Of a stretch of 64,000 bases of DNA, positions 35,950-64,000 are shown one piece after another. Every line of letters starts with the position of its first letter. Position 1 is the first letter of the stretch. The DNA lies in assembly GCA_965112155.1 (NCBI GenBank), contig OZ218106.1; one strand, 5' to 3'. A program made the position numbers and the translations under genes. The notes beneath the pieces are model-generated. The model was not told the DNA's origin, did no database searches, and saw only the letters and a list, made by a program, of their open reading frames with translations. Source of the DNA: Podarcis liolepis (Eukaryota).

Positions 35950-36960
35950 CGTGCATGTGCGTGGAACCGCATTTCCAGCTCTGCCTCACGAGCAAAGGCG
36001 GGCTATAGACACGCACCGTTTCTGTCACACGCGCTCACCGACACTCGCTCTCTCACGCACAACACACACACACACACACCCCGCCCCTTTTCCTTCTAGC
36101 GCCGGCACAACCCTCGCCCCCTTCCTCCTCCTCCTCCTGCAAACCCCGTGACGCCTCTCGAGACCCGCCCTGCGAGGCGGCAGAGGCGGCCGCCGAGGCA
36201 ACAGAAGAAGCGGCAGCGTGACAGACCGCCGCCGGGTCGCTAGTCGTGCCCGCCCAGCGCCCGTTGGCGGGAGCTGCCCTCTCACCAGCCTGGAGGAAGG
36301 CGCTCCCGCACCCCGCGACGAAGGGGAGGGATGGGCTCGACCGAGGAGCTGCTGCTCCCGCCGCCCGAATACGCCTTCGAGAGGGACTGGGAGCCAGCGC
36401 CATCGTTGGCGTCTCCGGGCGGGAGGGCAGTCGCCCGGCACAGGCGGAGGAGGCAGCACCGGGAGCAGCAGCAGCAGCCGCCGCCTAGGGAAGAAGAGGA
36501 AGAGGGCGAGGAGGAACAACTGCAGGTGAGCGGCTGCATCTCCGGGCGGCCAGGTGCGGGTTGTAAAACGCCTCTTCCCTCTTTTTTGAACCTCGACCAG
36601 GCAGGATCCGCCCCACCAGTTGCCCGGGAGAACGGTTGGGGCCGTTGCCTTCCGGGGGCTTCTTGCAGAAGCGTCTGGTTTAGCCGATTGTCGTTTGCAG
36701 GATCGTGCAAGAAACCACACACACACCTTTTGGGTCCGATGCAGCCCGTGGCTCTTCTTGGGTCCTGGGAGCCAAGCCTGGTGCTGGGACTGGGACGTGG
36801 TTTTGTAAGGGGTGGGGCGCCGCACCTGTGCAGCGCTGGCAAAAGCCGGACTGTGCACGCGCAAAACGCGCGCACGAGAATAAGCGGGGGGGGGGGAGCC
36901 CCCCTTCCCTCCTTGCACTGTCTATAATATCGTGCCTGTGGCGCTTGCGCTCTGAAAATA
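35950..36960. promoter_or_regulatory. CpG island / promoter and 5' UTR of FAM241A
   Basis: Sharp rise in GC and CpG content around exon 1; GC box (ccccgcccc) near 36079. Confidence 0.85.
36331..36525 (+). CDS. FAM241A: FAM241A (C4orf32) coding exon 1, 65 codons, phase 0
   Basis: ATG in good context (gggATGG) inside a CpG island; ends CAG|GTGAG donor. Splices in frame to the unambiguous exon 2. MGSTEELL resembles the human start (MCSAGELL, from memory). Confidence 0.85.
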
Positions 36961-37654
36961 AAATTTAAAAAGCGTGGCTGCTGTTGTGAAAGGAAGGAAT
37001 CCATGCTAGGGTATCTTTGCTTCCCCCCATCGGATAAGTTTGGAGGGTGGTGATCGTTAGGGAGGAAAAGAGACTGAACTTCCTGGAAGTGGGGGGGGGG
37101 TGGAGTTCTGCTAACCCCCTTGCAAGTTTTCCTGATGATGTATTGGGAAAATACACCCCACAGCTATGTTTATGTGGTTATGCAAACTTTCCACACGAGT
37201 GTGATTCCTCCCCAATTACTTGGGGGGGGGGATAAGAACCCTATATTAATTTTCCTATGCCACATCCCCATATATTTAAAGCACATAGTTTCCCCCAAAG
37301 AATCTTGGGAACTGTAGTTTGTGGCTCACAGAGCTACAATTCCCAACATGCTTAACACATCACAGTTTCCAGGATTCTTTAGGGAAAGTCATGCACTTCA
37401 GATGTATGGTGTGGCTGTGAATGTGGTGAGGCAGGTTTTGTTGACTGGGCTTTAATACTAACATGGTTTGTGATAGTTTGTGGGTCTTTCAGGTTGCTTT
37501 CCCTGAACTAGCAAAGGTGTCTGAACCCATGCACACAAATCACTCTCCTATAAACACAATCTTTGTGACTATAGAGCACTAAATAGTTAAATCCTCCATA
37601 TTTTCAAAGAATGTGTGGAGTTACAACAATCATTGAGTTTGCAAGAATGGAGTT

Positions 37655-37896
37655 AAGAAGAAGAGGAGGAGGAGTTTGGGTTTGATATCTCGCTTTATCA
37701 CTACCAGGAGGAGTCTCAAAGCGGCTAACATTCTCCTTTCCCTTCCTCCCCCACAACAAACACTCTGTGAGGTGAGTGGGGCTGAGAGACTTCAGAGAAG
37801 TGTGACTAGCCCAAGGTCACCCAGCAGCTGCACGTGGAGGAGCGGGGACACGAACCCGGCTTACCAGATTACGAGTCCACCACTCTTAACCACTAC
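37655..37896 (-). mobile_element. Squam3-like SINE
   Basis: Reverse complement of the 19509-19771 element with high identity. Confidence 0.82.
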
Positions 37897-38171
37897 GGGG
37901 TGGTAGTTTAATCTGAATTTATTGAAATGGAATAGTAGGGTGTGGTCCAGTTTTTCTGTCTCCTTTTATGCCTGCACAGGTGTACACATAGACATAGTAG
38001 TTGCAATACTGCACCCAGTGCACTGCAATTTACCCAGTCTGGAAATACCTGAAGGATCACATAGCAGTGGAATAATTATAGGCCAGTATGCTATCCTTTG
38101 TTTATGTTTAGAGACTCTAGTCACAGATGCACCTCATAGCATCATTCAGATTTCTTGGAAGAAAGGCAATA

Positions 38172-38374
38172 CAGGGGTACCTCGGGTTACATACGCTTCA
38201 CTAACCCAGAAGTTAGTGGAGTCGGGTTAAGAACTTTGCTTCAGGATGAGAACAGATATCACCTGGTGGCAGCAGGAGGTCCCATTAGCTAAAGTGGTGC
38301 TTCAGGTTAAGAACAGTTTCAGGTTAAGAACGGACCTCCGGAACAAATTAAGTACTTAACCCGAGGTACCACTG
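38172..38374. mobile_element. Tc1/mariner MITE, same family as 6502-6714
   Basis: Shared internal sequence, TIRs and TA TSD. Confidence 0.88.
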
Positions 38375-40524
38375 TACAAGATTCCAGGGAAAGAGTCTAC
38401 AATGATGTTTGTCTTGTTCAGAGGAATTGCGTTTGTTGATTGACATAAACCCGCTTTGCATGTTAAGCTTCTCTGCATGTCTCTTGAAGCACACATCTGC
38501 AATATGTGTCCAAGTGTATGTGCATAGGATGAACTCCACATAATCAGGAGCCCTGATCAGATGAGTCCTTTCTTACATGTGTAAGGTTGTAGTTATGGGC
38601 ACATGTAGCAGATATTTCAACATGATAATGGGTGTGGACAGAGTCTGCCACTTCCCTGTTTTCATTGTACGTGCAGAGAAGAGCCCTAATGCATGAAGAG
38701 GGCTGTTCTTATGGAGGAACGAGAGATTCAAATTACAGTTCTGGTCAAAGCAGTCGTTTGGAAACAAACTACTGTTTTGGAAACAAACTAAATTTAAAAT
38801 TTGTTTCTAAATGCATGGGTATGTTGTAGCTGGCATAAACTTAAAGGCATTCTTCATCACTGTGTAAGCAAAAACAGGAGATGCCTGTTTAAAAATGGTG
38901 GCTTTTTACAAAGAGTAATTTTTGTAAGTACTTTTATAATCCTATTTTTATCATGCCTGTCATCTTTCACTTTACTAGCTTTTCTTTGTGTACCATTGTG
39001 TCCAAAGCATGAGCTCACAGTTCTTTCTAAACAGATAAAATGAGCACCTCTGGCTTGGAAGAACCTGTTCATTATAGAGACCTGCCAACATTCTACAAAG
39101 AGGTGTGCTCAATCACAAATTAACTGGAGTTTTGCAGGTTCACTGTGCCATGGTATTGTTCATAAAATTTCCTTTGCTGAAAAACTTTTTGCAGAATTAA
39201 TCAGCCCCACTTTACTAGAGCCCTTAGCCTTTTTACCTAAATTTATGTACAGTATTTATTCTATCTGAAATATTTACTTGCTACCTTTCTGCCTCCAAGG
39301 TGGCTGCCAATAAATGAAAATTAACAAAAGGCAGCAAACAATGGCCATTGCATATGAATTGTAGCCCTATTCAGGCATCTGGTTCTTATTCACATGTTGG
39401 AAATCCTATACACCTAAAAGACTGACCGCTTCAGACTGAACTGATCACACATTGGCCTGGGAACATGGCTGGCATGCGCATAAGTATCAAGGCTAGGGCT
39501 AGCCCCATACATTCTCATTAGCCAGTGCAGCTAGTGTAAACTAATTTGTTATTTATTGTGACTTGCTCTGGGAAAGTACCTAACTTCAAGGCTGTTTCTG
39601 AAACACCATCTCCATTTCAAACCATATGAGAATTGAAGATGCTTCTTGCAGCTATGCAAAAGATATGGTGAACACATTTCTTCTCCCCATCTTGATTTGA
39701 AGCCAAAGCCTTGGGGAGCCAATACACTTTTTTAAAAATCTGAATAAATTCTGGCTTGGGAAATTTGTCCTTTATTGTCATTGTGAGAATCTTCTAGGCT
39801 TTTTTGGGGGCTCCCCAGATTTGAGCTGCTGGAGCTAGTCTATGAAGCAAGGCTATCTTGGTCCACATAGAAGGACACTACTTGTCAGTTTGCATGTGAG
39901 ATGGCACAGCAGGTGGCTTGATAGTTGATATATGGAGGCATGTGGCATCAGCACATTTTTCCTAAAGTGTTTGAAGGGATGCCCCCTTACCATGCTGCAG
40001 GAAAAGGAAGTATAGACGCTTGCAAATAATAATGAGAGTTGATCTTTGATCAAAATATAGCTGTGGTGGCTCAGTATCACTCCAGGTTTCGCTTTGTTTG
40101 GATCTTTGTGCCAGGAACAAGAGTTCCCAAAATATACTGATGGAAAAGAGAACATGCAACATCTCAGAGAGAACCTGGAGCCGAAGGGCTTCAAATTATT
40201 GTCAACCCAATGATGTGATGCAATATCCAGTTTTTAAGAAGCTTCTCAAGAGCTTGCAGTGCTGAAAAACATTAATTTAAAAACTTAGGAAATTGGTGGT
40301 TCAGAACATAAAACTAGTTCAGGAGCACCTCCTTCATGTCACAACTGATGTGGGATGTTTATGTAAACATTAAGGGTGTTTGTTACACCTTTTGTTATAA
40401 CTTTAGCTCTGAAAAGATCTTGCCATGCTGATCAAAAGGCTGGAGAGCTTACCCTCAAGCTCTTCTGCTCCTAATGGGTTATATTCAGTGAAAATGTAAA
40501 GGTTCCTGAGACTTGCTTTTTGTA

Positions 40525-40870
40525 AAAGGTAAAGCGACCCCTGACCATTAGGTCCAGTCGCAGACGACTCTGGGGTTGCAGCACTCATCTCGCTTTATTG
40601 GCCGAGGGAGCCGGCGTATAGTTTCCGGGTCATGTGGCCAGCATGACTAAGCCGCTTCTGGCAAACCAGAGCAGCACATGGAAACGGCATTTACCTTCCT
40701 GCCGGAGCGGTACCTATTTATCTACTTGCACTTTGATGTGCTTTCAAACTGCTAGGTTGGCAGGAGCAGGGGCCGAGCGACGGGAACTCACCCTGTCACG
40801 GGGATTCGAATCGCCAACCTTCCGATCGGCAAGCCCTAGGCTCTGTGGTTTAGACCGCAGTGCCCATCCA
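40525..40870 (-). mobile_element. Sauria SINE in FAM241A intron
   Basis: Homologous to the other copies; TSD CTTTTTGTA at 40516-40524 and 40871-40879. Confidence 0.92.
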
Positions 40871-42074
40871 CTTTTTGTACTCTGCAACTAAATATTGGAA
40901 AGTAGCTTCTTTACAAATTCTAAATTTACTAAATATTGGTAAGTTGCTTCTTTACAAAAAGAAGTTGTCTACTGTTGGCTAACTTTTGCAATACTTGCAA
41001 CCAAGGCCTCATCTGTGGAATCAACCGTGAGATTTTCTGCTGTTCAGGAACAAGCTGTTGACAGTTAACATGCTTTCCTTTTTGTTCTCTCTTCCTGTCT
41101 TAGTGGGATGGTGGGACCCGCATTGTGTTCTAAAAGGGGAAACAAAACTTCTCTGTGTTTGCAGTTTTCTAGCAACTGAGAATAAGGTTATATTTTCAGG
41201 AGTGCTATATACCTAATGAAATACTCCTAATCATCTTCAGAGTCGCAAGTGTTAGGGACAGACTTGTAGTGATATAAATTCAAATTGTGATAACATTTCA
41301 AGAACAGCAGTTGTCCATGAAAGTAGAGATTGAGAATCAGCACCAACCTTGTGAGAATGCAACTGAAATTTCACAGATGCTTTCCAGTAATAATTGTTAA
41401 TTTAGGCATAACAAAAAATACAGCATCTGTAAGTCTATTTGGGATTAGCATAAATTTAATAGACAAAATTGTGGCCCACAGGCGAGTTTTAAGTTAAGAG
41501 GCCATTTTTGTAAGATCTGCTTGTTCTTTGGATACTTTTACTATAGAGCTCTCTATCCCCTGGTCATGAAACCAAGTCTTTCACATACTTTTATATATCA
41601 CTTGTAGGCTTTAGTGATATAGTTAGGTTCCTGTTTTGTGGGCTTCCCATAGGCACGTAGTTGGACTCTGTGAGAAGATGTTGGACGAAATGGATCTCTG
41701 GCCGGATCCAGCAGGGCTCTTCTTGTATTCTTAAATAGTTATACAGTATGTTGACTTCAGTGTGTAAGGGAAGTGTGGAACTTCAGAACATTGTTCATGA
41801 GAGCCTACTGAGAATTTGCTGAGCTTTTGTGAAGAGGGCGGCCTTTCCTCCTCACAACATCTGGTGACCACTTGGATTTCAGCATCTGACTCAGCTTCCT
41901 ACTCAGCTGAAGATTTTCCCCACACTCAGCAGAAACTAGGATAACACCTGCAATTCCACTGGCTGCTTTGCAAGGGCAAGGCAACCGTAGCTTCTTTTAC
42001 ATCTGTGTTCTGAGCTACTTTAGGGCAAAAAAAAAAAAAAGCGGGAAGAGAATAAAGGGTGGTTAAAAATAATG

Positions 42075-42257
42075 AGGACATAAGAAGCTGCCTTAGTATA
42101 AAACCATTAATCCATCTAGCTCAGTATTGTCTACACACTGGCTGATAGTGGCTCTGCAGGGTTTCAGACAAGGAAAATTCTCAGTCCTTCCTGGAGATTG
42201 AATCTGGGATCTTGGGTGTGCCAAGCAAGTGGTCTACCTCTGAGCTACAGCCCTTCC
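42075..42257 (-). mobile_element. tRNA(Ala)-like SINE, same family as 4045-4255
   Basis: Reverse-complement similarity along the head, body and tail. Confidence 0.7.
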
Positions 42258-43139
42258 TCCAAATGAAGGCTTAATATCCAAATCTCTGAATTGAATTTTG
42301 TTAATGTGTGAAGAAGCCTGCCATAAGAGTTTCATAAGCTTACTCTTCAAACGCTTTAAAAGCTGACAAAGAGAGCGCCATTTATATAAAGTGGGTTCCA
42401 CAAAGTGCCTTGTACTACTGGAATGCACATTTCTGCTGATTCTCCTTCAGCTGCAGCCCTCCACACCACATCCGTGACCCTAAGGAGTGGTTTGGGAGGG
42501 GAGGGTATAAAGGAATACAGCCAGAAGAAGGAGAATACAGGAAAGCTCCATTGCGTGAATGGAACTCTGTAATTCTTTGGATCTGTGCCATAGTTATTCA
42601 GCTCTTTCCAAGCATATTAACTATATATATTCAAGTAAGGATTTTTAGATTATATTCCTAGCCGTTCCTCTCTTTTTCCTTTCCTTTAAAAAAACAACAA
42701 CTAGAAATCTTGTTATCTTCCTTAGCGGAAGTGTATGCTTATAAGCTTATTATTATAGTATTCTCAATGAGGAATGAATAATATGAATTATAGTTTATGG
42801 TTGATATTTATAGTAAATACTGCAAGCCCAGAGTTTTGCACATTTTGGCTGATGAGGGAAGCAGAAAAGGATACCATTTTCATACCTGTTGTACGCTTAA
42901 TAAATGTTTTGTATTGTTTATATTGCATTTTTATTGTGCACTTTCATAGGTTTAGCAAACTGTAAAGCAAAATAAATGAAACTTGCTTGTGTTCCAAAGT
43001 ATTTATTATGTGATTTTTTTAAATTACAAGTTCACAGACTGGGTGTTTGTACTTCCCATACTATTTCAGCATTAGGTCATTCATTTAGATCTTTAAAAAT
43101 TGTGGATATCGGCAATAAATGTACTTAGTAGTACCCCTA

Positions 43140-43498
43140 AAGGTAAAGGTACCCCTGACCGTTAGGTCCAGTTGCGAACGACTCGGGGGTTGCGGCGCTC
43201 ATCTCGCTCTATAGGCCAAGAAGCTGGCATTTGTCCGCAGACGGCTTCTGGGTCATGTGGCCAGCATGACTAAGCCGCTTCTGGTGAACCAGAGCAGCGC
43301 ACGGAAAAGCCATTTACCTTCCCGCCAGAGTGATACCTATTTATCTACTTGCACTTTGATGTGCTTTCGAACTGCTAGGTTGGCAGGAGCAGGGACCGAA
43401 CAACGGGAGCTCACCCCATCATGGGGATTCGAACTGCCGACCTTCTGATCGACAAGCCCTAGGCTCTGTGGTTTAGACCACAGCGCCACCCACATCCC
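43140..43498 (-). mobile_element. Sauria SINE, full length, in FAM241A intron
   Basis: Complete head and ACCTTT tail; perfect 13-bp TSD AGTAGTACCCCTA at 43127-43139 and 43499-43511. Confidence 0.93.
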
Positions 43499-45009
43499 AG
43501 TAGTACCCCTACTAAGCATTTATCTCCTGATTGTACAGCTGCTAGGTTGCTACTTAATCCATGATGATGTTTTGGTTTCTTACACACTAATGACACAGCA
43601 TGAATATAGTGCTAGGGTTTTTTTTGGGGGGGGGGATAAGTCCAAATCTATTGGTCAGTGTTTGTACAGTTGACATTGGCATGGAAGAATGGTTGGTATA
43701 AGCAGTATTATTCAGGACAGTCCTGTCCCAACTCATGGCCATTCCGAATGTGGCAATTTGTTCTTGACATGGACTGTAGCACAGACGCGGGATGGATGTT
43801 GAGTACAAATAGTACAGATTGCATAGGTTTCATGAGTGCTAAATTGTGTTAGACCTGTTCAAGCCACATTGCTTTCTCTCTAATGTCAATTAATGTGAGC
43901 TGATGCAGCTTACAAGAGTATATGTTCCTGTTTCCTACAAAGTGTTTGGCACCATGGTTTTATTTTAGGAAACCACTTCACAAAGTTCTGGCTGGATTGG
44001 TATTTGCTCAGCTAGTATTTAAGTGTTCAGTTGCCATAACCAAATTCTTGAGCCCACCTTGGGGAAGCGGGGGGGAGCTATGACTGACATCATATGGTAA
44101 TAAAAAAAAAATCATATAACAGCTGAATAGGTTTTTGCATAGTGGTTGCTTTGCTTTTCATTGTTCATTTATTCCTTATCTCAGTTCAGCACGACCAGCT
44201 TAATCCTGTGCCTGCTCATGTTTTTCCTTCCCAAAAGAAATAAAATAAGCCATTTACTACCAGTTAAATGTCATTCCTGACTGTTCAAGCTTTGCTATCT
44301 TATTTTATTTTTACCTGAACATAAATATAAATCCATTGCTGTAACATTGTTCCTGGTATGTTACATTTTAAAATTTAAGAAACCAGTAAAACCTTTTGCT
44401 AACCCTCCTTCACATTGCAAAATTAAAATTTATGTTTTATTTTTCCCCCCAGAAAAATATACATTCTATATTTTGTGAAACACTACCAAATTTTTAGTGG
44501 AAACAGTAGTGGAAGAAAGTAGTGAGTTATCCCCTCTGAAAATGTTTATGATGTGGTATAGAAAGATCCTGTGCGAACACTTTTGGCTTCTATTCTACAG
44601 CAGTTGCGCTATCGCACATGTGATTGCATACATTCTAAAACCCTCTTGTGTACAATTATAATTTATTGCATTTCCTCTCATTGGCATATATTATTTCCTT
44701 CCTTGCTCCTCATTTAGCCTCACAACAACCCTGTGTTATTACGCTGTGAGATCAGAAGTTAGGCTGCAAGCTTCTTGGTGAAGTGGGGTTTTGTACAGTA
44801 CTTGTGTCTTTGACATCTAGTATACTAACCAGAGGGCAGCAAACGGATGATATGGGATTATGACTCCCATCGTCCCTCACCATTTCCCATGCTGGCAGGG
44901 GCTAATGGAAGCTGGGAGTCCCAACAATGTCTGAAGAACATTGGCTCTGCCTAGTGCTACAACACCCTATTCTCACAGCAAGAATCACTGCTTAATCCTC
45001 TTCCCAGTT

Positions 45010-46424
45010 ACTGGAATCTGTCTGTCTCAGCAGACAACGGAAGTGCGTACCTTAAGGGGGGGAAGCCAGATGGTTGAAGAGCTACAGCACCCGCTGTGGC
45101 TGTAGAGATTGATATGAGAGAGAAATGTTTTCTTGCAGTTGGGGCAGATGAAGGGTTCAGGTTTTGCTGCTACACGTGCAGAATGGCATTTCTCTCTGTG
45201 CTCCTCTCAGTGGTCATTTCAGTGGTTGGTGCTGTGGATATACAACTTGAGTGTCTTGTCTCCAGGCACTGCAGTCATCTGCAAGGTATTCCCATATGGC
45301 AGGGTTAATGTTACCAGACTCCATGTCATGTTTGCAGACATCTTTGTAACACAGAGTTAGACTGCCAAAAGGCCTAGGGCCTGAAGCCAGCTCCCCATAA
45401 AACACATCCTTGGGGGGTCCTGGTATTTTAAATTATGTGTGCATGACCAAGCCAGCATAGACATCACAGAGACAGAAGTGTGAACATGCTGGGAATGTGG
45501 CCTTGAGAGAGAGCGCATGCTTGTTCAAGACTCTGTCATGCCAAGTGCACAACTCGCTTCCACAACTCGCTTCCATAAAGCAGCATACTCAACACAAATC
45601 CTGGTAGACCTTCAACTTGGTATTTGGTCATTCTCCCAAACGCTCTCGGAAAGGCAAGTCATTGCTGTAGTTGCCTTGCCAATGCACCTGTCCAGCTCAG
45701 CATTGATGGGAAGGTTGCTGGTTATGGTGGATCCTAGGTAAACAAAATCGTCTACTGCCCTAACCATGTGTTGCGTGGAGTGCTGAAGGCTTGGGCAAAA
45801 TGGTTGATGAGTCTCTGTAGAGCTTCCTTGGAGTGCACTCTTAAGACTGTGTCATCTGAAAACAACATATCTCAGATTAAGAACCCACTACACTTTCGTC
45901 TTGGTGTGAAGATGTGCCAGGTTGTACAGATGCCCACCCCTCTTTGAATGGAAGTACATACCGTCATCAGTCAAGCTGAAGGCATGGGGAGAGCAAAGAG
46001 AATTGGAGCAAGAACACAGCCCTATTTCACACCGTTCTTTATAGGAAAGTGTCCATGGATGAACAGTCATACTGGACAGTGCCATGTATGTTCTCGCGGA
46101 AGGCACAACCATATTGTGGGCATCCTATCTTAGGTGAGAATCCTATCTTGTTGAAGAGTCCTTTTCAGCTGACCAGGTCAAAAGCCTTCGTCGGGTCTAT
46201 GAAGGCAATGTACAGGGGGCTTCTCTGCTCTCAGCATTTCTCCTGCAGCTGGCAAGTGAGGAAATCATGTTGACCACTGATCTGAGCTCTAAAGCCACAT
46301 TGTGACTCAGGATAGATCCTTTCAGTGAGTGTAATTTGTTGAGAATTACACAGACAAAGGCTTTCCCAACAGTAGCTAGCAGGGAAATTCCACAATAGTT
46401 AGCATGGCAGTCACCTTCCCACAA
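45010..46424 (-). mobile_element. Degenerate RTE-clade LINE (RT and 3' end) in FAM241A intron
   Basis: Frameshifted RT motifs (NYCGISLLATVGK; FYGELASGPRP..YKDVCKHDM..W). A related tail fragment lies at ~33800-33895. Confidence 0.85.
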
Positions 46425-47225
46425 TACATGTGGTTAAATTTCTTCACTATTTCTTGTATGTTATATTGATTATAACAGTCTCCTTTTTAAAAGAGAGAGA
46501 GATAATGAGAATATTTTAATAACTTTAATCAAAATGGATCTGGTTATAGAACAACTGTGATTCCAGACACATTCAGCAACATTTAGCTATATTTATACTT
46601 TTATTGTGGGGGTGGGAATAGAAGGGAATTTAAGCCATGCATAAGTCATTGTGTGTCCATGTGCATGCACCAAAGTCATGATGCATCTGCTTCCTCACCT
46701 AGAGATTCAACTTCCAGAGACCCAACATTTCTATAAAAGGCAAAAGCAGGAAAAGAGTGAATATTAAAGGGACAGTTTTGAAGTATATGCTTTGGGTGAT
46801 CTGCCAACTGAATCCCATACCTTGTTGCACATTTGGCATGCAACTGAAGTGCTGCATAGTGCAGATCTCGAGGGGGCAGTTACATTGTTCAAACCTTCCA
46901 CCTTTATTACTGCAGAAGTTGGGAGGGGGAAGAAATTACTAAACTCAAAGTTGGGTGCAAATTGCTGATTGGTTTGGGGGATGTGTGCATTTTTGTTTTG
47001 TTTTTGTCTGAAGAAACCACTTGAGTATAAAAAAGAGTAATACTTACAGCTTTTCCTTTCTAACTATCCATCTACTTTAAGGAGGTACACAGTAATTTTG
47101 CAAAATGTATTTAATATGTGTTAGTGAAAATATTGAACCACATAAAACTAGTTGATGTTTATGAAATGGGAGACTTCTGTGCACAACCATGGACACAAAC
47201 ATACTCTGCTAGATGATTCTGTATG

Positions 47226-47474
47226 TAAATTTATAAACATTCACTGGTGGCATAAACCAAAACTTATTGGTGATTAAACAAAATTTCTAAATAATATCTG
47301 AATAGACAAGTACAAAAGTCTATACTTACAGTCCATATGTTACATTCCTTCTTGCCTTAAGCTACAATATTTAATTTCTTTCTTCGGGAAATTCTCCCTC
47401 AAGATTTTGGTGTATTTACATACATTCACTCGTGATATAAACTGAAGAAGCCCGAGACTCTTCATGGGCGAAAC
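47226..47474. mobile_element. Short Penelope-like insertion with 15-bp TSD, ending in a hammerhead ribozyme core
   Basis: Exact direct repeat AGATGATTCTGTATG at 47211-47225 and 47475-47489. Insert ends CTGAAGA-A-GCCC..GGGC-GAAAC. Confidence 0.65.
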
Positions 47475-47488
47475 AGATGATTCTGTAT
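47442..47488 (+). ncRNA. Hammerhead ribozyme core motif (stem I incomplete)
   Basis: CUGAAGA 47442-47448; stem II GCCC/GGGC; GAAA 47470-47473; stem III ACAGA/UCUGU; GUA triplet 47485-47487. Confidence 0.5.
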
Positions 47489-49082
47489 GGCATGGGTCAC
47501 CAACATAGTGTTTGTGGGCTCACATGTGCCTACAGAGGCCTTCCTGGTGCCCATAGGGTCTCTTCCCCTGCTGAAATTGGGGCTTGAACAAAGCCTTATT
47601 TAGCTATTCAAAGGCTCGCTCCCCCCAACTCTAATTCTGTGTGGGCAATTGCAAAGGGGTTTCAGCTGGGAGGAAAGAATTGCGGCATGTGTGTGGTGCC
47701 CACAACAGTTCCTCTATTTCACAAATGTACCTATGAACCCAAAAAGGTTGGCAAACAATAGTGTACAGCATCAAAGGAGATCAGGGCTAAAATATGCCTC
47801 AGGGTGAATGATGTATGAATATTGCTCTTTATCTGGAAATAGCTTTCAGCATTTTATTATAATGAGTAAGGCAGCACTTTAACCCTTATGAATTCTACTA
47901 AACTAGAATTTTAATTTCTAATGGCACATACTTCCTGCACTTATTCATGTGTAATGTAATGTAAGTCTCATGGAGCTTAAGGGGGGTTACTCCATAGTAA
48001 GGGTACTTAGGATTACACTGCTTGTTATTGGGTTTTTTGGCCTGTTTTGCTACTCACTAGGGAAAAAATGCAAGCTGTATTATTCTTGCTGTTAGATATC
48101 TAATTAAAGCATCAGTGTAGGAAATGTTTTGGCTATAGAACTAGACTTAAAACAAACCTCTTCTCCAGAATTTTTTTTTATGATGGATATTTAATCACGA
48201 TAATTACAGTTTACAAGGCAAGCCTTGTGTTGCTAACAGTATTGACTTGTTGAGTAAAATATTTATGAGTAGCTTCTTGCTGAGCTTTGCTCGTCTTTAA
48301 TGGAAGCATTAGCAGTGCTGTGCATTGTGTACTTCATCATCTTAAAAGGTTGCTTTACATTACCCATCTCCATCAAAAGCCTGTCCACAGAAGCTTTGTG
48401 CAATATCTTTTTTATAAAGATGATAAGGAATTCAATACTTGGCTCTGCCGCTATTATTCAGTACTGTAGTACACTCCTATTATTAAGGGGGAGAGGTGAC
48501 AAGATGGAGCAGTGAATGAGGAAAAATGGTCTCTCCCCCATTCTCGCTTCTCATGGACCACGAGGCACAATTGAAGACACAGGAATCTGCCTTATACTGA
48601 GTCAAGATCAGTATTACCTACACTGGCTGGCAGCAGTTCTCTTCCTAGCCCCCCCCCCCCCCGAAATACCAAGGATTGAGTTTAGGACCTTCTTCATTCA
48701 AAGCAGATGGTCTACCCCTGAGCTCTGGTCCTTTGGGGTCGGAAAAGTAGTGTGATGGAAGAAATTACCAGTTTCTAAAATTAAAAAGGTGCAAGTAGCA
48801 GGGTGTTGGGGAAAAGGGAAACCTCCTGAGTATATTTACGCAAAGCCCTTTATGAAGATTTCAGGTAATGACAGGTTTGGGAAAGGGGCGTTTCTAGTAC
48901 AGCACCTTGTACATTGTAGGCATTAATAAAATACATTGCTTTTGGATGACAAAAGCCAATAATGCAAGCTATTGTTAGTTGTGGTAGGGGCCACTATAAA
49001 GCATTACAGTGCAGAAAGATGAAAAACACCAACATTTCTGCACAGGAGGGTGGGTGGGTGTTTTTTTTAATGGCAGCAGTAA

Positions 49083-49394
<312 letters not shown>

Positions 49395-61100: not shown

Positions 61101-62076
61101 GGACTCCTTGGAATATATAGCATATGTCAGTTATGATTTGCTTCTATGCTGCCTCCTTGTAAACAAATGTGTTCATGTGTTATTGAAGTGTAAATTCCAA
61201 CGCAAATTATCATGGGAGGAAATTCCACTATGTAATTCTCTTTGAACTTTATTTCTACACTTTTTCATTATTATTAAATTTGTTTTTCACTTTATCTTGC
61301 CCAGGCAACCAAAAAGATTTACAACCAAACAGACAGACAGCTCCACAGACAAGACACATGCTCTGCTCATGCCTGGTGGAGGGAAAACAAGCCTTGAAAA
61401 TAGTGTTCTAGGCTGGGTTGCCAGGTCACATGACCAAGATGACTAGTCTTGGGATCCTGGTTATGGCCCTCCTCTCTGGTCGGGCCCGTACTATGCCTGC
61501 AGAACAGCCCTTCTTGAAACTTACCTTGGCCTCAGCTCAGCCACTTACACTGTGCCAGGACTGATGGCTTCATGCTGGCTGAGCCCAACTGAATCAGGAA
61601 TCAGCCAACTGAGTCAGAGGTCCACTGCTTTCTAAGCTACTCATACCAATGGATTTTGCCATAGGATTGCCTCTTGAAGTTACCAATAAAAATCAGAAGT
61701 TAAAAAATGAGTTGCCCTTTACAGAACAATAGAATAACATAAGCAAAAAAAGAAAAGAGACTGCCCTGCTGTCACTCATTCGCTATAGCCTTCATGTGCT
61801 ACAGTCTGGTATGATTCAGAAAATGTCAAACCATGGTTTCCCTTTCTGTACACAAACTGGCACAAACCATGGGCTTAAGAGCTATCTCATTCTCCCTTTA
61901 CATTCCACAATTTCTTAACTTACTTCTGGGTTCTTGGCAAATAGTTTACTGTTTCATCTGAACCCACCAACTATTAAGTTGAAACTTCAAACTATGGTTT
62001 AGCTGTGGCTAAGCCAGTACAGGACTGTAATGAAGCATTTGTGGTGTCTTAGCTACATTTAACTGAATGCCTTGTA

Positions 62077-62296
62077 CAGTGGAACCTTGGTTTTCAAACG
62101 TAATCCGTTCTGGAAGACTATTCAACTTCCGAAACGTTCGAAAAGCGAAAATCAAAGGGCTGCCAACAATTTCAATGGGGAAAAAAGAGAAACGCGCCTC
62201 GAAAGACTTTTGAGTTCCAAAAAACGTTTGAAAACCGGAACACTTACTTCTGGGTTTTCAGCGTTCGGGAGCCAAAACGTTCCAAAACAGAGGCGT
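62077..62296. mobile_element. Truncated Tc1/mariner MITE
   Basis: TA-CAGTGGAACCTTGG left TIR; right TIR missing. Confidence 0.7.
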
Positions 62297-62315
62297 ATTT
62301 GCTTTTTCATCTTTT

Positions 62316-62373
62316 GTTACTCATTCCAACGCTAAGGTGTTACTCATTCCAAACCTTGCGTTACTCATTCCAA
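62316..62373. repeat. Three copies of GTTACTCATTCCAA with short spacers
   Basis: Units at 62316-62329, 62339-62352 and 62360-62373. Confidence 0.95.
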
Positions 62374-62639
62374 AACTACAGAAATGGGCAAGGAAGACAG
62401 TGAAGCAGCAAAAACAAAAGCAGCGAGAGGCGCCTAAGTAAAGGTCCAGCTTTGGACCTAACTTTGCAAACAGCAGCCTACTGGACCTCTGAGGCTATTA
62501 GCTAATGCACAATTCAACACGGGCTAGAGAAACCACCATCGCCATCATCACCATTACCGCATCCAGAATAGAGTTGCTAAATTGGGGTGGGTGCTGAATG
62601 CATAAAAATACTGGGCTGACCACTGTCCCTCCCTGGAAA

Positions 62640-63700
62640 TACATTCGGGGTCTGACTGAGCCATCTTCTAGGCACGGCCGTGAAGAGCAGCCGCTTTGCT
62701 CAAACGTTTCCCGGAACCGCTATCCCCGCTGAGCTCATTGCCACGGTAACATTCCCACCCGACTCGCATTAGTCACTATTCCTCCCACCTTTGGCTCGGC
62801 GCGTAAAAGCGCACGGATAGACAGCCGAGTCAGGAGGCGCACCCCCCCCCCATCTGCGCATGCTCTCATCTGCCTCCTCGCTCCCGGTCATGAATGAGGA
62901 GGGCGGGGCCTGAGAGGGGCCAGGGGGCGGGGCCCGAGGCTGCCTGCGACGGCCGACCTGGCAAGCACAGCGTGTGAGGGGGCCGGCGAAGGCGGGCGGA
63001 GCAGAGCGGAGTCTCCGCGCGGAAGGGGGAGGGGGCGCTTTCCGTTTTTAATTCGTGGTCGCGCGACAGTGTGGCTCCACATAAACAAAAGAGAGGGGGG
63101 GTCCCGTCGCCGTGCCGTTTCTTTACCTAGCTCGCGGCGGCCGTTGGGCGGCGGCGCCGTTGCCGAGGGACCGCCGTCATAGTCGTTTGGCGCTGCTGCG
63201 GCGGTTGGTGACTTAACGGACGCTGGTGGCCCTCGCGCGCGTGCGCACACGCGCCCACCCCTCAGCATGCCATGGGGAACAGCTGGGCGGCGCAGTGGTG
63301 CTGCTGGCTCTTCCCGAGGCGGGAAGCGGGACGGATCCAGCGAGGAGGAGGGTAAGCACGGGACGTGGAAGAGGAGGCGGGACGGGCAGGGCTGGCTGGC
63401 TGGCTGTGACTCCACCTTTTCGAGGTGGAGGGGGGGTGTTTAGGCAGTGCCCAGGTGGGATTGTAGGGCGAGTTGCCTCGCGGTTCAGCGGCGGAGTCTC
63501 GCGTCCCTTCAGGCTGACACTCAAGACGTGGCAGCTGCCTCAGGTGTTAATGGAGGGAGGAGGAATGCGAGTCTAGCGACGGCCATCACTCCACATTGCA
63601 TGTTCAGAGGCAGGGTATCTCTGAATGCTGCCGGGGAAGCAACAGCGGGGTGAGGGCTCTTTAGTTTGTGCGGCTCCCCCCCCCCCCCCCGGAAGCATTT
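62640..63700. promoter_or_regulatory. CpG island / promoter of AP1AR
   Basis: CpG-dense. GC boxes near 62901 and 62925, NRF1-like TGCGCATG near 62856, X-box-like 62737-62750, GAS palindrome 62708-62716. Confidence 0.85.
63272..63351 (+). CDS. AP1AR: AP1AR (Gadkin/gamma-BAR) coding exon 1; gene continues beyond the window
   Basis: gccATGG Kozak. MGNSWAAQWCCWLFPRREAGRIQRGG-G|gtaagc donor (phase 2) aligns with human MGNCCWTQCFGLLRKEAGRLQRVGGGG. Sits downstream of FAM241A as in mammals. Not in the supplied ORF track because it is short. Confidence 0.9.
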
Positions 63701-64000
63701 GATCGGTCTCTATGAGGAAACAGGATGCTCACGAGATGGACCTTCGGTGTGATCCAGCAGGCCTCTCATGCTCTCCTGCCTAATGTAATGCGAGATTATA
63801 GCAACAGGAATCTGTCGCAAAAGTTATAGGTGCCGTTTTTGCAGCTTAACCCAGTTCTTGGAGAGGGTGGAATGGTAGTGGGGAGTCGGCTGTGTGGCTG
63901 TTTTTCAAAAGTATATGGTTAGTCACGGGAAAACGCAGCGCCAGAATAGATTCACCTCCAGGCTGATGGGCTGTTTACCCCTCCCCCATAGGAAGGATTC

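Follow-up and report, generated by a model that had tools for sequence, protein, structure and literature searches.

Conserved intronic hammerhead ribozymes are known from amniotes, where they have been named HH9 and HH10. They are described as complete, highly conserved and located in the sense strand of a host intron (PMC7761336). For the hammerheads of Penelope-like elements, Cervera and de la Pena (2014, PMC4209133) describe minimal, dimer-type motifs in animals, motifs with a long stem III that could fold as monomers in fungal and protist elements, and an extra base after A9 as a conserved feature. A tail, inverted pLTRs and intron retention are hallmarks of Penelope-like elements (PMC8557442, PMC3846280), and internal initiation at two adjacent sites and on both strands was found in vitro for the Poseidon element of the anole (PMC11167929).

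The window, that is the whole stretch of 64,000 nucleotides of Podarcis liolepis DNA analysed here (contig OZ218106.1), contains a 249-bp insert that is flanked by perfect 15-bp direct repeats (47211-47225 and 47475-47489) and carries a hammerhead motif. We are fairly confident in reading the insert as a truncated, partly inverted leader copy of a repeat family that is likely Penelope-like (Neptune-type), with a hammerhead remnant that is likely non-cleaving. Like the conserved amniote hammerheads, the motif lies in the sense strand of a host intron; in contrast to them, the window copy is young and incomplete, a piece of an element in which no constraint is evident. The family to which it belongs is low-copy, contains two introns and carries an unusually complete monomer-type hammerhead. 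With its long stem III, the native motif could form a monomeric fold of the kind described for the fungal and protist elements, and not the minimal dimer type described for animals (PMC4209133), and the window copy further differs from the metazoan Penelope-like hammerheads in having lost stem I. The reptile motifs in the supplementary figures of PMC4209133 may already include the window family.

The match of its second coding exon to PF15378 places the host gene in the FAM241 family. The two coding exons are as follows.

36331-36525, plus strand: FAM241-family coding exon 1, in a CpG island; its open frame ends at a GT donor and RNA reads link it to exon 2.
49149-49394, plus strand: FAM241-family coding exon 2, with the PF15378 match.

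The gene is probably FAM241A rather than FAM241B; the Atlas ranking places FAM241A slightly higher, a weak separation (0.89 against 0.87). Stranded reads from two bulk RNA runs (14 and 5 reads) join exon 1 to exon 2 on the plus strand, and the hammerhead motif therefore lies on the transcribed strand of the 12.6-kb intron (36526-49148), with the acceptor 1.66 kb downstream. Further repeats with raised depth and loose ends in contigs and reads are found near the insert at 47500-47760 and 48608-48724. A second CpG island at 62001-64000 is probably the start of a neighbouring gene.

The insert and its flanks are composed of the following features, in part overlapping.

47211-47225, plus strand: left copy of the target-site duplication, an exact repeat.
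47226-47442, minus strand: inverted arm, an antisense copy of the leader part that precedes the hammerhead; identity to the nine best other copies is 88-94%.
47244-47329, minus strand: retained leader intron 2, GT-AG, 86 nt, precisely absent in 19 of 38 core-bearing copies.
47330-47428, minus strand: leader exon, 99 nt, exactly the stretch matched by spliced copies.
47429-47442, minus strand: 3' end of retained leader intron 1.
47441-47476, plus strand: sense arm with core C3-A9 and an extra A, stem II, G12-A14 and four stem III bases.
47473-47487, plus strand: chimeric stem III of 5 bp with a 4-nt loop and a GUA triplet, predicted pair probability 0.73-0.99.
47475-47489, plus strand: right copy of the target-site duplication, whose first six bases agree with the element continuation at 5/6.
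47428-47434 with 47491-47497, plus strand: predicted distal 7-bp helix; a 6x2 internal loop lies between it and the one pair next to the core.

In the nine best other copies, the sequence of the inverted arm lies on the same strand as the core, 22 nt upstream of it. The inverted arm of the window copy begins about 22 nt before the core and thereby skips the native 5' strand of stem I; its first 3-4 bases have no clean match to other copies. The last two bases of the sense arm are common to element and duplication. In the leader exon, the stem I/core region is repeated upstream in degenerate form (a 185-nt internal repeat), and the family model gives a partial 21-bit match at 47305-47413 on the minus strand. 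The window copy itself scores 40.5 bits; six copies kept out of model training reach 72-110 bits. The window copy lacks a tail and neither of its arms begins at the tail, unlike most copies. Three independent copies (the window copy at 47441, L057 and L075) have an arm end no more than 1-2 nt from the first core base, a possible reverse-transcription stop site.

Contigs with four organism labels cross one or both insert junctions, and together with an arm identity to other copies of 89-95% this indicates that the insertion is older than those lineages. No joint skipping the insert was found in four other runs, where contigs show its presence and the left contig of run X1 ends inside the left repeat; this outcome does not bear on the mobile origin in either direction. 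Contigs from three organisms differ at 0, 8 and 5 of about 550 bases and have no differences at 47447-47495; at a divergence this low, zero changes in 49 bases do not indicate constraint. The preliminary description, made from the window alone, had given the 249-bp insert, its perfect repeats, the core, stem II and stem III at coordinates that are borne out by the sequence, and its placement of the motif on the sense strand of the host intron agrees with the stranded reads. Its proposal of a mobile origin is supported by a multi-copy family with target-site duplications, and that of a Penelope-like element with an inverted arm by head-to-head arms, a tail and retained introns at other loci.

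The family is dispersed, with at least 80 matches in the genome. An exact pattern search with stem II gave 26 matches genome-wide against 0 for the reversed control, so the motif is not a chance occurrence. Native copies carry a complete type I hammerhead with all three stems: stem I has 3 + 5 pairs around a 3-nt bulge and stem III has 5 + 2 pairs, a 14-nt loop and a GUC triplet. Among 30 copies, 96.2% of 656 cells in the native stems are paired, and both flanking arms of the core are kept in 34 of 38 distinct core copies. Covariation among 30 copies is weak: 3 pairs have changes in both partners (6 of 500 shuffles). This fits copies in decay, and covariation is not counted as evidence here. 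Arms on both strands, arranged head-to-head as in the window copy, are present at 39 of 57 distinct loci, and exact 14-17-bp flanking repeats at 18 of 57, with 15 bp as the commonest length (12 of 57). Roughly 70 of 95 outer 3' ends fall into two clusters at +380-394 and +415-432 from the core, about 35 nt apart, a share inflated by the 30 of 57 loci that were fetched with the tail as query. Of 19 outer 5' ends, 8 extend to -344 to -347, where the reference copy begins. Both leader introns are of the GT-AG type, and copies either contain them or lack them precisely; among the 38 core-bearing copies, 19 have intron 2 spliced out, 11 retain it and 8 could not be scored. Precise intron loss in some copies indicates an RNA step. 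Arms of a single insertion with differing splice states, which would prove two RNA templates, were not seen in 37 loci with junction matches. Other copies with an arm starting inside the hammerhead are L075 and L014, and L012 seemingly lacks both tails. A more distant relative, L150 (G000:C4:96851709), is 75% identical over 61 nt and scores 41 bits with the family model; the long stem III is shared, whereas stem II is longer.

These properties closely resemble those of the inverted-pLTR-plus-tail insertions of endonuclease-positive Penelope-like elements. The latter share with the window family head-to-head arms, two 3' clusters about 35 nt apart, a duplication, a hammerhead in the leader and retained spliceosomal introns. 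The window family differs in that no coding frame was found, that it has two leader introns and that spliced copies outnumber unspliced ones, and the window copy differs in starting both arms away from the tail. No reverse transcriptase or GIY-YIG endonuclease frame of the family was detected in 57 loci, the GIY-YIG search having scored 150 of 2956 candidates; its matches were rejected as the enzyme of the family because they belong to another, minimal-hammerhead family or to non-Penelope sequence. No copies extending more than about 13 nt past the tail were found, and no direct pLTR-frame-pLTR tandem was seen for the family in the loci analysed. A candidate full element on C8, two same-strand pieces 6.7 kb apart, looks like one interrupted copy. 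The family is thus assigned to the Penelope-like elements by its anatomy and not by an enzyme.

A sister family found in the same genome with a looser hammerhead pattern is of the Neptune type and autonomous (L151-L153). Its 746-aa frames match reverse transcriptase and GIY-YIG and contain the cysteine-rich linker of the Neptune type, and tandem hammerhead cores lie 3.6-3.9 kb apart in a pLTR-frame-pLTR arrangement. At each of the three loci, a frame of about 270 aa precedes the 746-aa reverse transcriptase-endonuclease frame, and this split coding region suggests a frameshift or an intron. The sister element resembles the window family in having the core with an extra A, both stem III arms, a GUC triplet, two GT-AG leader introns with spliced and unspliced copies, and 3' ends about 400-440 nt past the cleavage site. 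It differs in its 2-nt loop III, in its stem II and in an intron that ends directly at the core, and a comparison of the two leaders with blastn gave no similarity. Its second leader intron ends at the base preceding the core (L121-L148, L151-L153). Spliced copies make up 28 of 62 and unspliced copies 33 of 62, and the stem I strands differ between the two states; splice-dependent stem I strands have also been reported for Penelope of Drosophila virilis (PMC4209133). Two sister-family copies, L167 and L174, have an identical 123-nt deletion spanning 92 to 216 from the core, possibly derived from a deleted parent or representing a further intron.

We hypothesize that the window copy arose from two nicks, 15 bases apart, that the element endonuclease made in the host DNA, and that reverse transcription within an unspliced leader RNA was primed from both free ends. 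The first of these would have annealed by short homology just inside stem III and been copied back to the start of the core, and the other would have primed 22 nt upstream of the core and been extended by a further 217 nt. With the two products joined head to head, the copy would lack the original 5' strand of stem I as well as all sequence 3' of the fourth stem III base. The host duplication would then provide a replacement for the 3' arm of stem III and a triplet that can be cleaved, but no usable stem I. The insert would then most likely be a dead stump that matters little in itself, while the family preserves a record of Penelope-type copying that includes sense templates in both splice states, two start sites, priming by microhomology and cuts staggered by 15 bp.

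Junction sequences bear on the first of these steps. The first two bases of the duplication are identical to the next two of the element, and the native sequence after C15.2 agrees with the first six duplication bases at 5/6, where the one differing base would form a G-T wobble with the primer. At 28 tail ends, microhomology averages 1.68 nt against 0.41 nt in shuffles, none of 10,000 of which reach 1.68; the set comprises 16 loci picked for clear duplications, with 4 ends excluded as not being tail ends. The downstream arm of stem III and the triplet are host sequence, as the preliminary description had claimed in letting the duplication supply stem III. Its attribution of the upstream arm to the host has to be corrected, given that four of the five bases are the element's own, two of them being the junction microhomology. 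The accompanying view that the chimera had rebuilt most of a ribozyme is reversed, since the family hammerhead is complete and the window copy has lost most of it. The comparison with genomic copies that had been proposed, including what normally follows the core, returned a multi-copy family whose native copies continue after the core into a full stem III and GUC.

How readily a host site restores stem III can be estimated from the window. Among 8638 sites starting with AG, 227 (2.6%) would give at least 5 stem III pairs and an NUH triplet, 779 (9.0%) at least 4 pairs, and 65 (0.75%) at least 5 pairs together with a U at position 1.1. The host-made downstream arm is most likely due to chance, a coincidence of about 2-3%. 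A figure of 2.6% is unlikely at one locus, yet plausible for a post hoc pick from a large scan; it also leaves room for the alternative that the restored stem III is no accident. According to this alternative, which we consider unlikely, the template was the tail-less 5' product of self-cleavage and the primer paired with both stem III arms, looping out 12 nt, so that target choice fell on a site similar to both arms and stem III was restored automatically. Neither window arm begins at the tail, both beginning instead 5' of the cleavage site, and the duplication agrees with native RNA at 5/6 after the junction and again at 5/6 around the cleavage triplet, a second match expected by chance in about 1-3% of cases; two related families with deletions from the exact predicted cleavage site point the same way. 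However, this is a single case noticed post hoc, none of the 38 core copies of the window family ends or breaks at the cleavage site, and L012 also appears tail-less although it extends far past the hammerhead. In the anole element, moreover, the protein depends on the RNA that follows the hammerhead, and the template is mainly RNA that has not been cut (PMC11167929).

The window chimera retains the conserved core nucleotides and the G10.1-C11.1 pair of stem II. Core positions C3-A9 with one extra A occupy 47442-47449, stem II is formed by 47450-47454 and 47465-47469 (predicted pair probability 0.94-0.95), and G12-A14 lie at 47470-47472. In stem III, 47473-47477 pair with 47482-47486, A15.1-U16.1 is present, and the GUA triplet, which conforms to NUH, ends at 47487, after which the cut is predicted. 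Pairing of stem I next to the cleavage site has been lost: a single A-U pair is followed by two A/G mismatches, compared with 3 + 5 pairs in native copies. The preliminary description was right about the one core-adjacent pair, and its distal 4-bp pairing gives way to the predicted 7-bp helix (47428-47434/47491-47497), which is not a canonical stem I. Three helix I pairs are reportedly sufficient for hammerheads, according to the title of ref. B120 in PMC1995221, and the window copy has one. Cleavage is most sensitive to mismatches in the innermost pairs of stems I and III (PMC8495972). The overall folding energy is no better than that of shuffles (z -0.1 to -1.2), and enforcing the active-like fold would cost about 5 kcal/mol, compared with about 2.5 kcal/mol in the best native copy. 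The predicted ensemble share of this fold is 3e-5 to 1e-4 in the chimera and 2e-6 to 4e-3 in five native copies, a sixth (L049) having been left out owing to a core change and misparsing; as these shares overlap, folding alone gives no verdict on cleavage. Rfam hammerhead models at E<=10 gave no match in the window, and a complete native copy was missed as well, which makes this search uninformative. Intron RNA depth near the insert is about 2 or less in four RNA runs, with no pile of read ends, and is too shallow to inform on cleavage. On the basis of the modelled structure, with native stem I deleted and one pair and two mismatches at the cut site, the remnant probably does not cut, in line with the earlier expectation that it may well be inactive.

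It is improbable, in our estimate, that the chimera is instead a genuine, if weak, ribozyme with the host pre-mRNA as its substrate, aided in cutting by the distal helix and tandem A/G pairs or by a protein. Core, stem II, stem III and triplet are intact on the transcribed strand, positions 47447-47495 are free of differences in the contigs of three organisms, and precedents exist in that an anole Penelope hammerhead needs protein for cleavage (PMC11167929) and domesticated intronic hammerheads are known in amniotes (PMC7761336). If the chimera did cut, a single insertion could create an intronic ribozyme from element and host sequence together. The native bulged stem I is gone, however, the fold would have to be enforced at about twice the energy of the best native copy with a single pair at the cut site, the 49 unchanged bases are expected at the divergence of the contigs, and a G>A change at 47496 in run X3 breaks one pair of the distal helix. 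Least probable, and largely refuted, is the suggestion also raised in the preliminary description that the repeat is a retrozyme-like unit, i.e. tandem non-coding monomers circulating as circular RNA. The family does lack a detected coding frame, part of the core recurs in its leader within a degenerate 185-nt repeat, and animal retrozymes have been proposed to come from pLTRs (10.64898/2026.07.22.740005). Against this, there is one core per arm and the upstream repeat has neither stem II nor stem III, so that no tandem of complete hammerheads exists, and copies are dispersed, tailed, head-to-head, intron-bearing and flanked by duplications. We retain the reading of the insert as a leader fragment that is probably inactive.

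Related families carry deletions at the predicted cleavage site. Among 62 sister-family arms chosen on the core, L122 (G000:C1:38843322) and both arms of L141 (L141/L142, G000:C3:1958687-1958901) show blunt deletions whose first missing base directly follows C17. The sequence resumes about 290-300 nt downstream, at a different point in each locus, and the two L141 arms have the identical deletion junction. About 11 large breakpoints precede the tail in this family, and two exact matches to C17 among about 370 positions give p ~4e-4, calculated by hand; both cases were noticed within the first 30 loci and later loci added none. L163-minus was rejected as a further case, having a 3-nt overlap and ending 2 nt short. 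A genome-wide pattern requiring a non-C base after the triplet gave 8 matches, namely 3 sister-family arms and 5 loci of a third family. In this third family (98 matches), four of the five loci (L158-L161, L155) join the triplet to four staggered downstream points of one shared sequence, indicating that at least 3 deletions start at C17; as these loci were selected by the pattern itself, this is not an unbiased count over the 98 matches. Our literature search, with most subscription journals outside its coverage, found no obvious report of cleavage-site deletions.

The C17 deletions in two related families are possible fossils of in vivo hammerhead cleavage. We lean slightly towards the view that these families record RNAs that were cut in vivo and reverse-transcribed, leaving deletions from the exact cleavage site, and trimming with religation or template switching might produce the varied downstream rejoining points. 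The link to the window copy is much weaker, and it is doubtful that the whole account, in which Penelope hammerheads cut in vivo and cut RNAs are reverse-transcribed, extends to a window copy made from a tail-less 5' product. Any genome that contains elements of this kind allows a count of breakpoints at the cleavage base, and such breakpoints bear on an open question. Intact 926-aa Penelope-like frames are arranged as an inverted tandem at L106-L107 (G000:C3:23276000-23295999); they belong to a different family, whose leader carries a minimal hammerhead.
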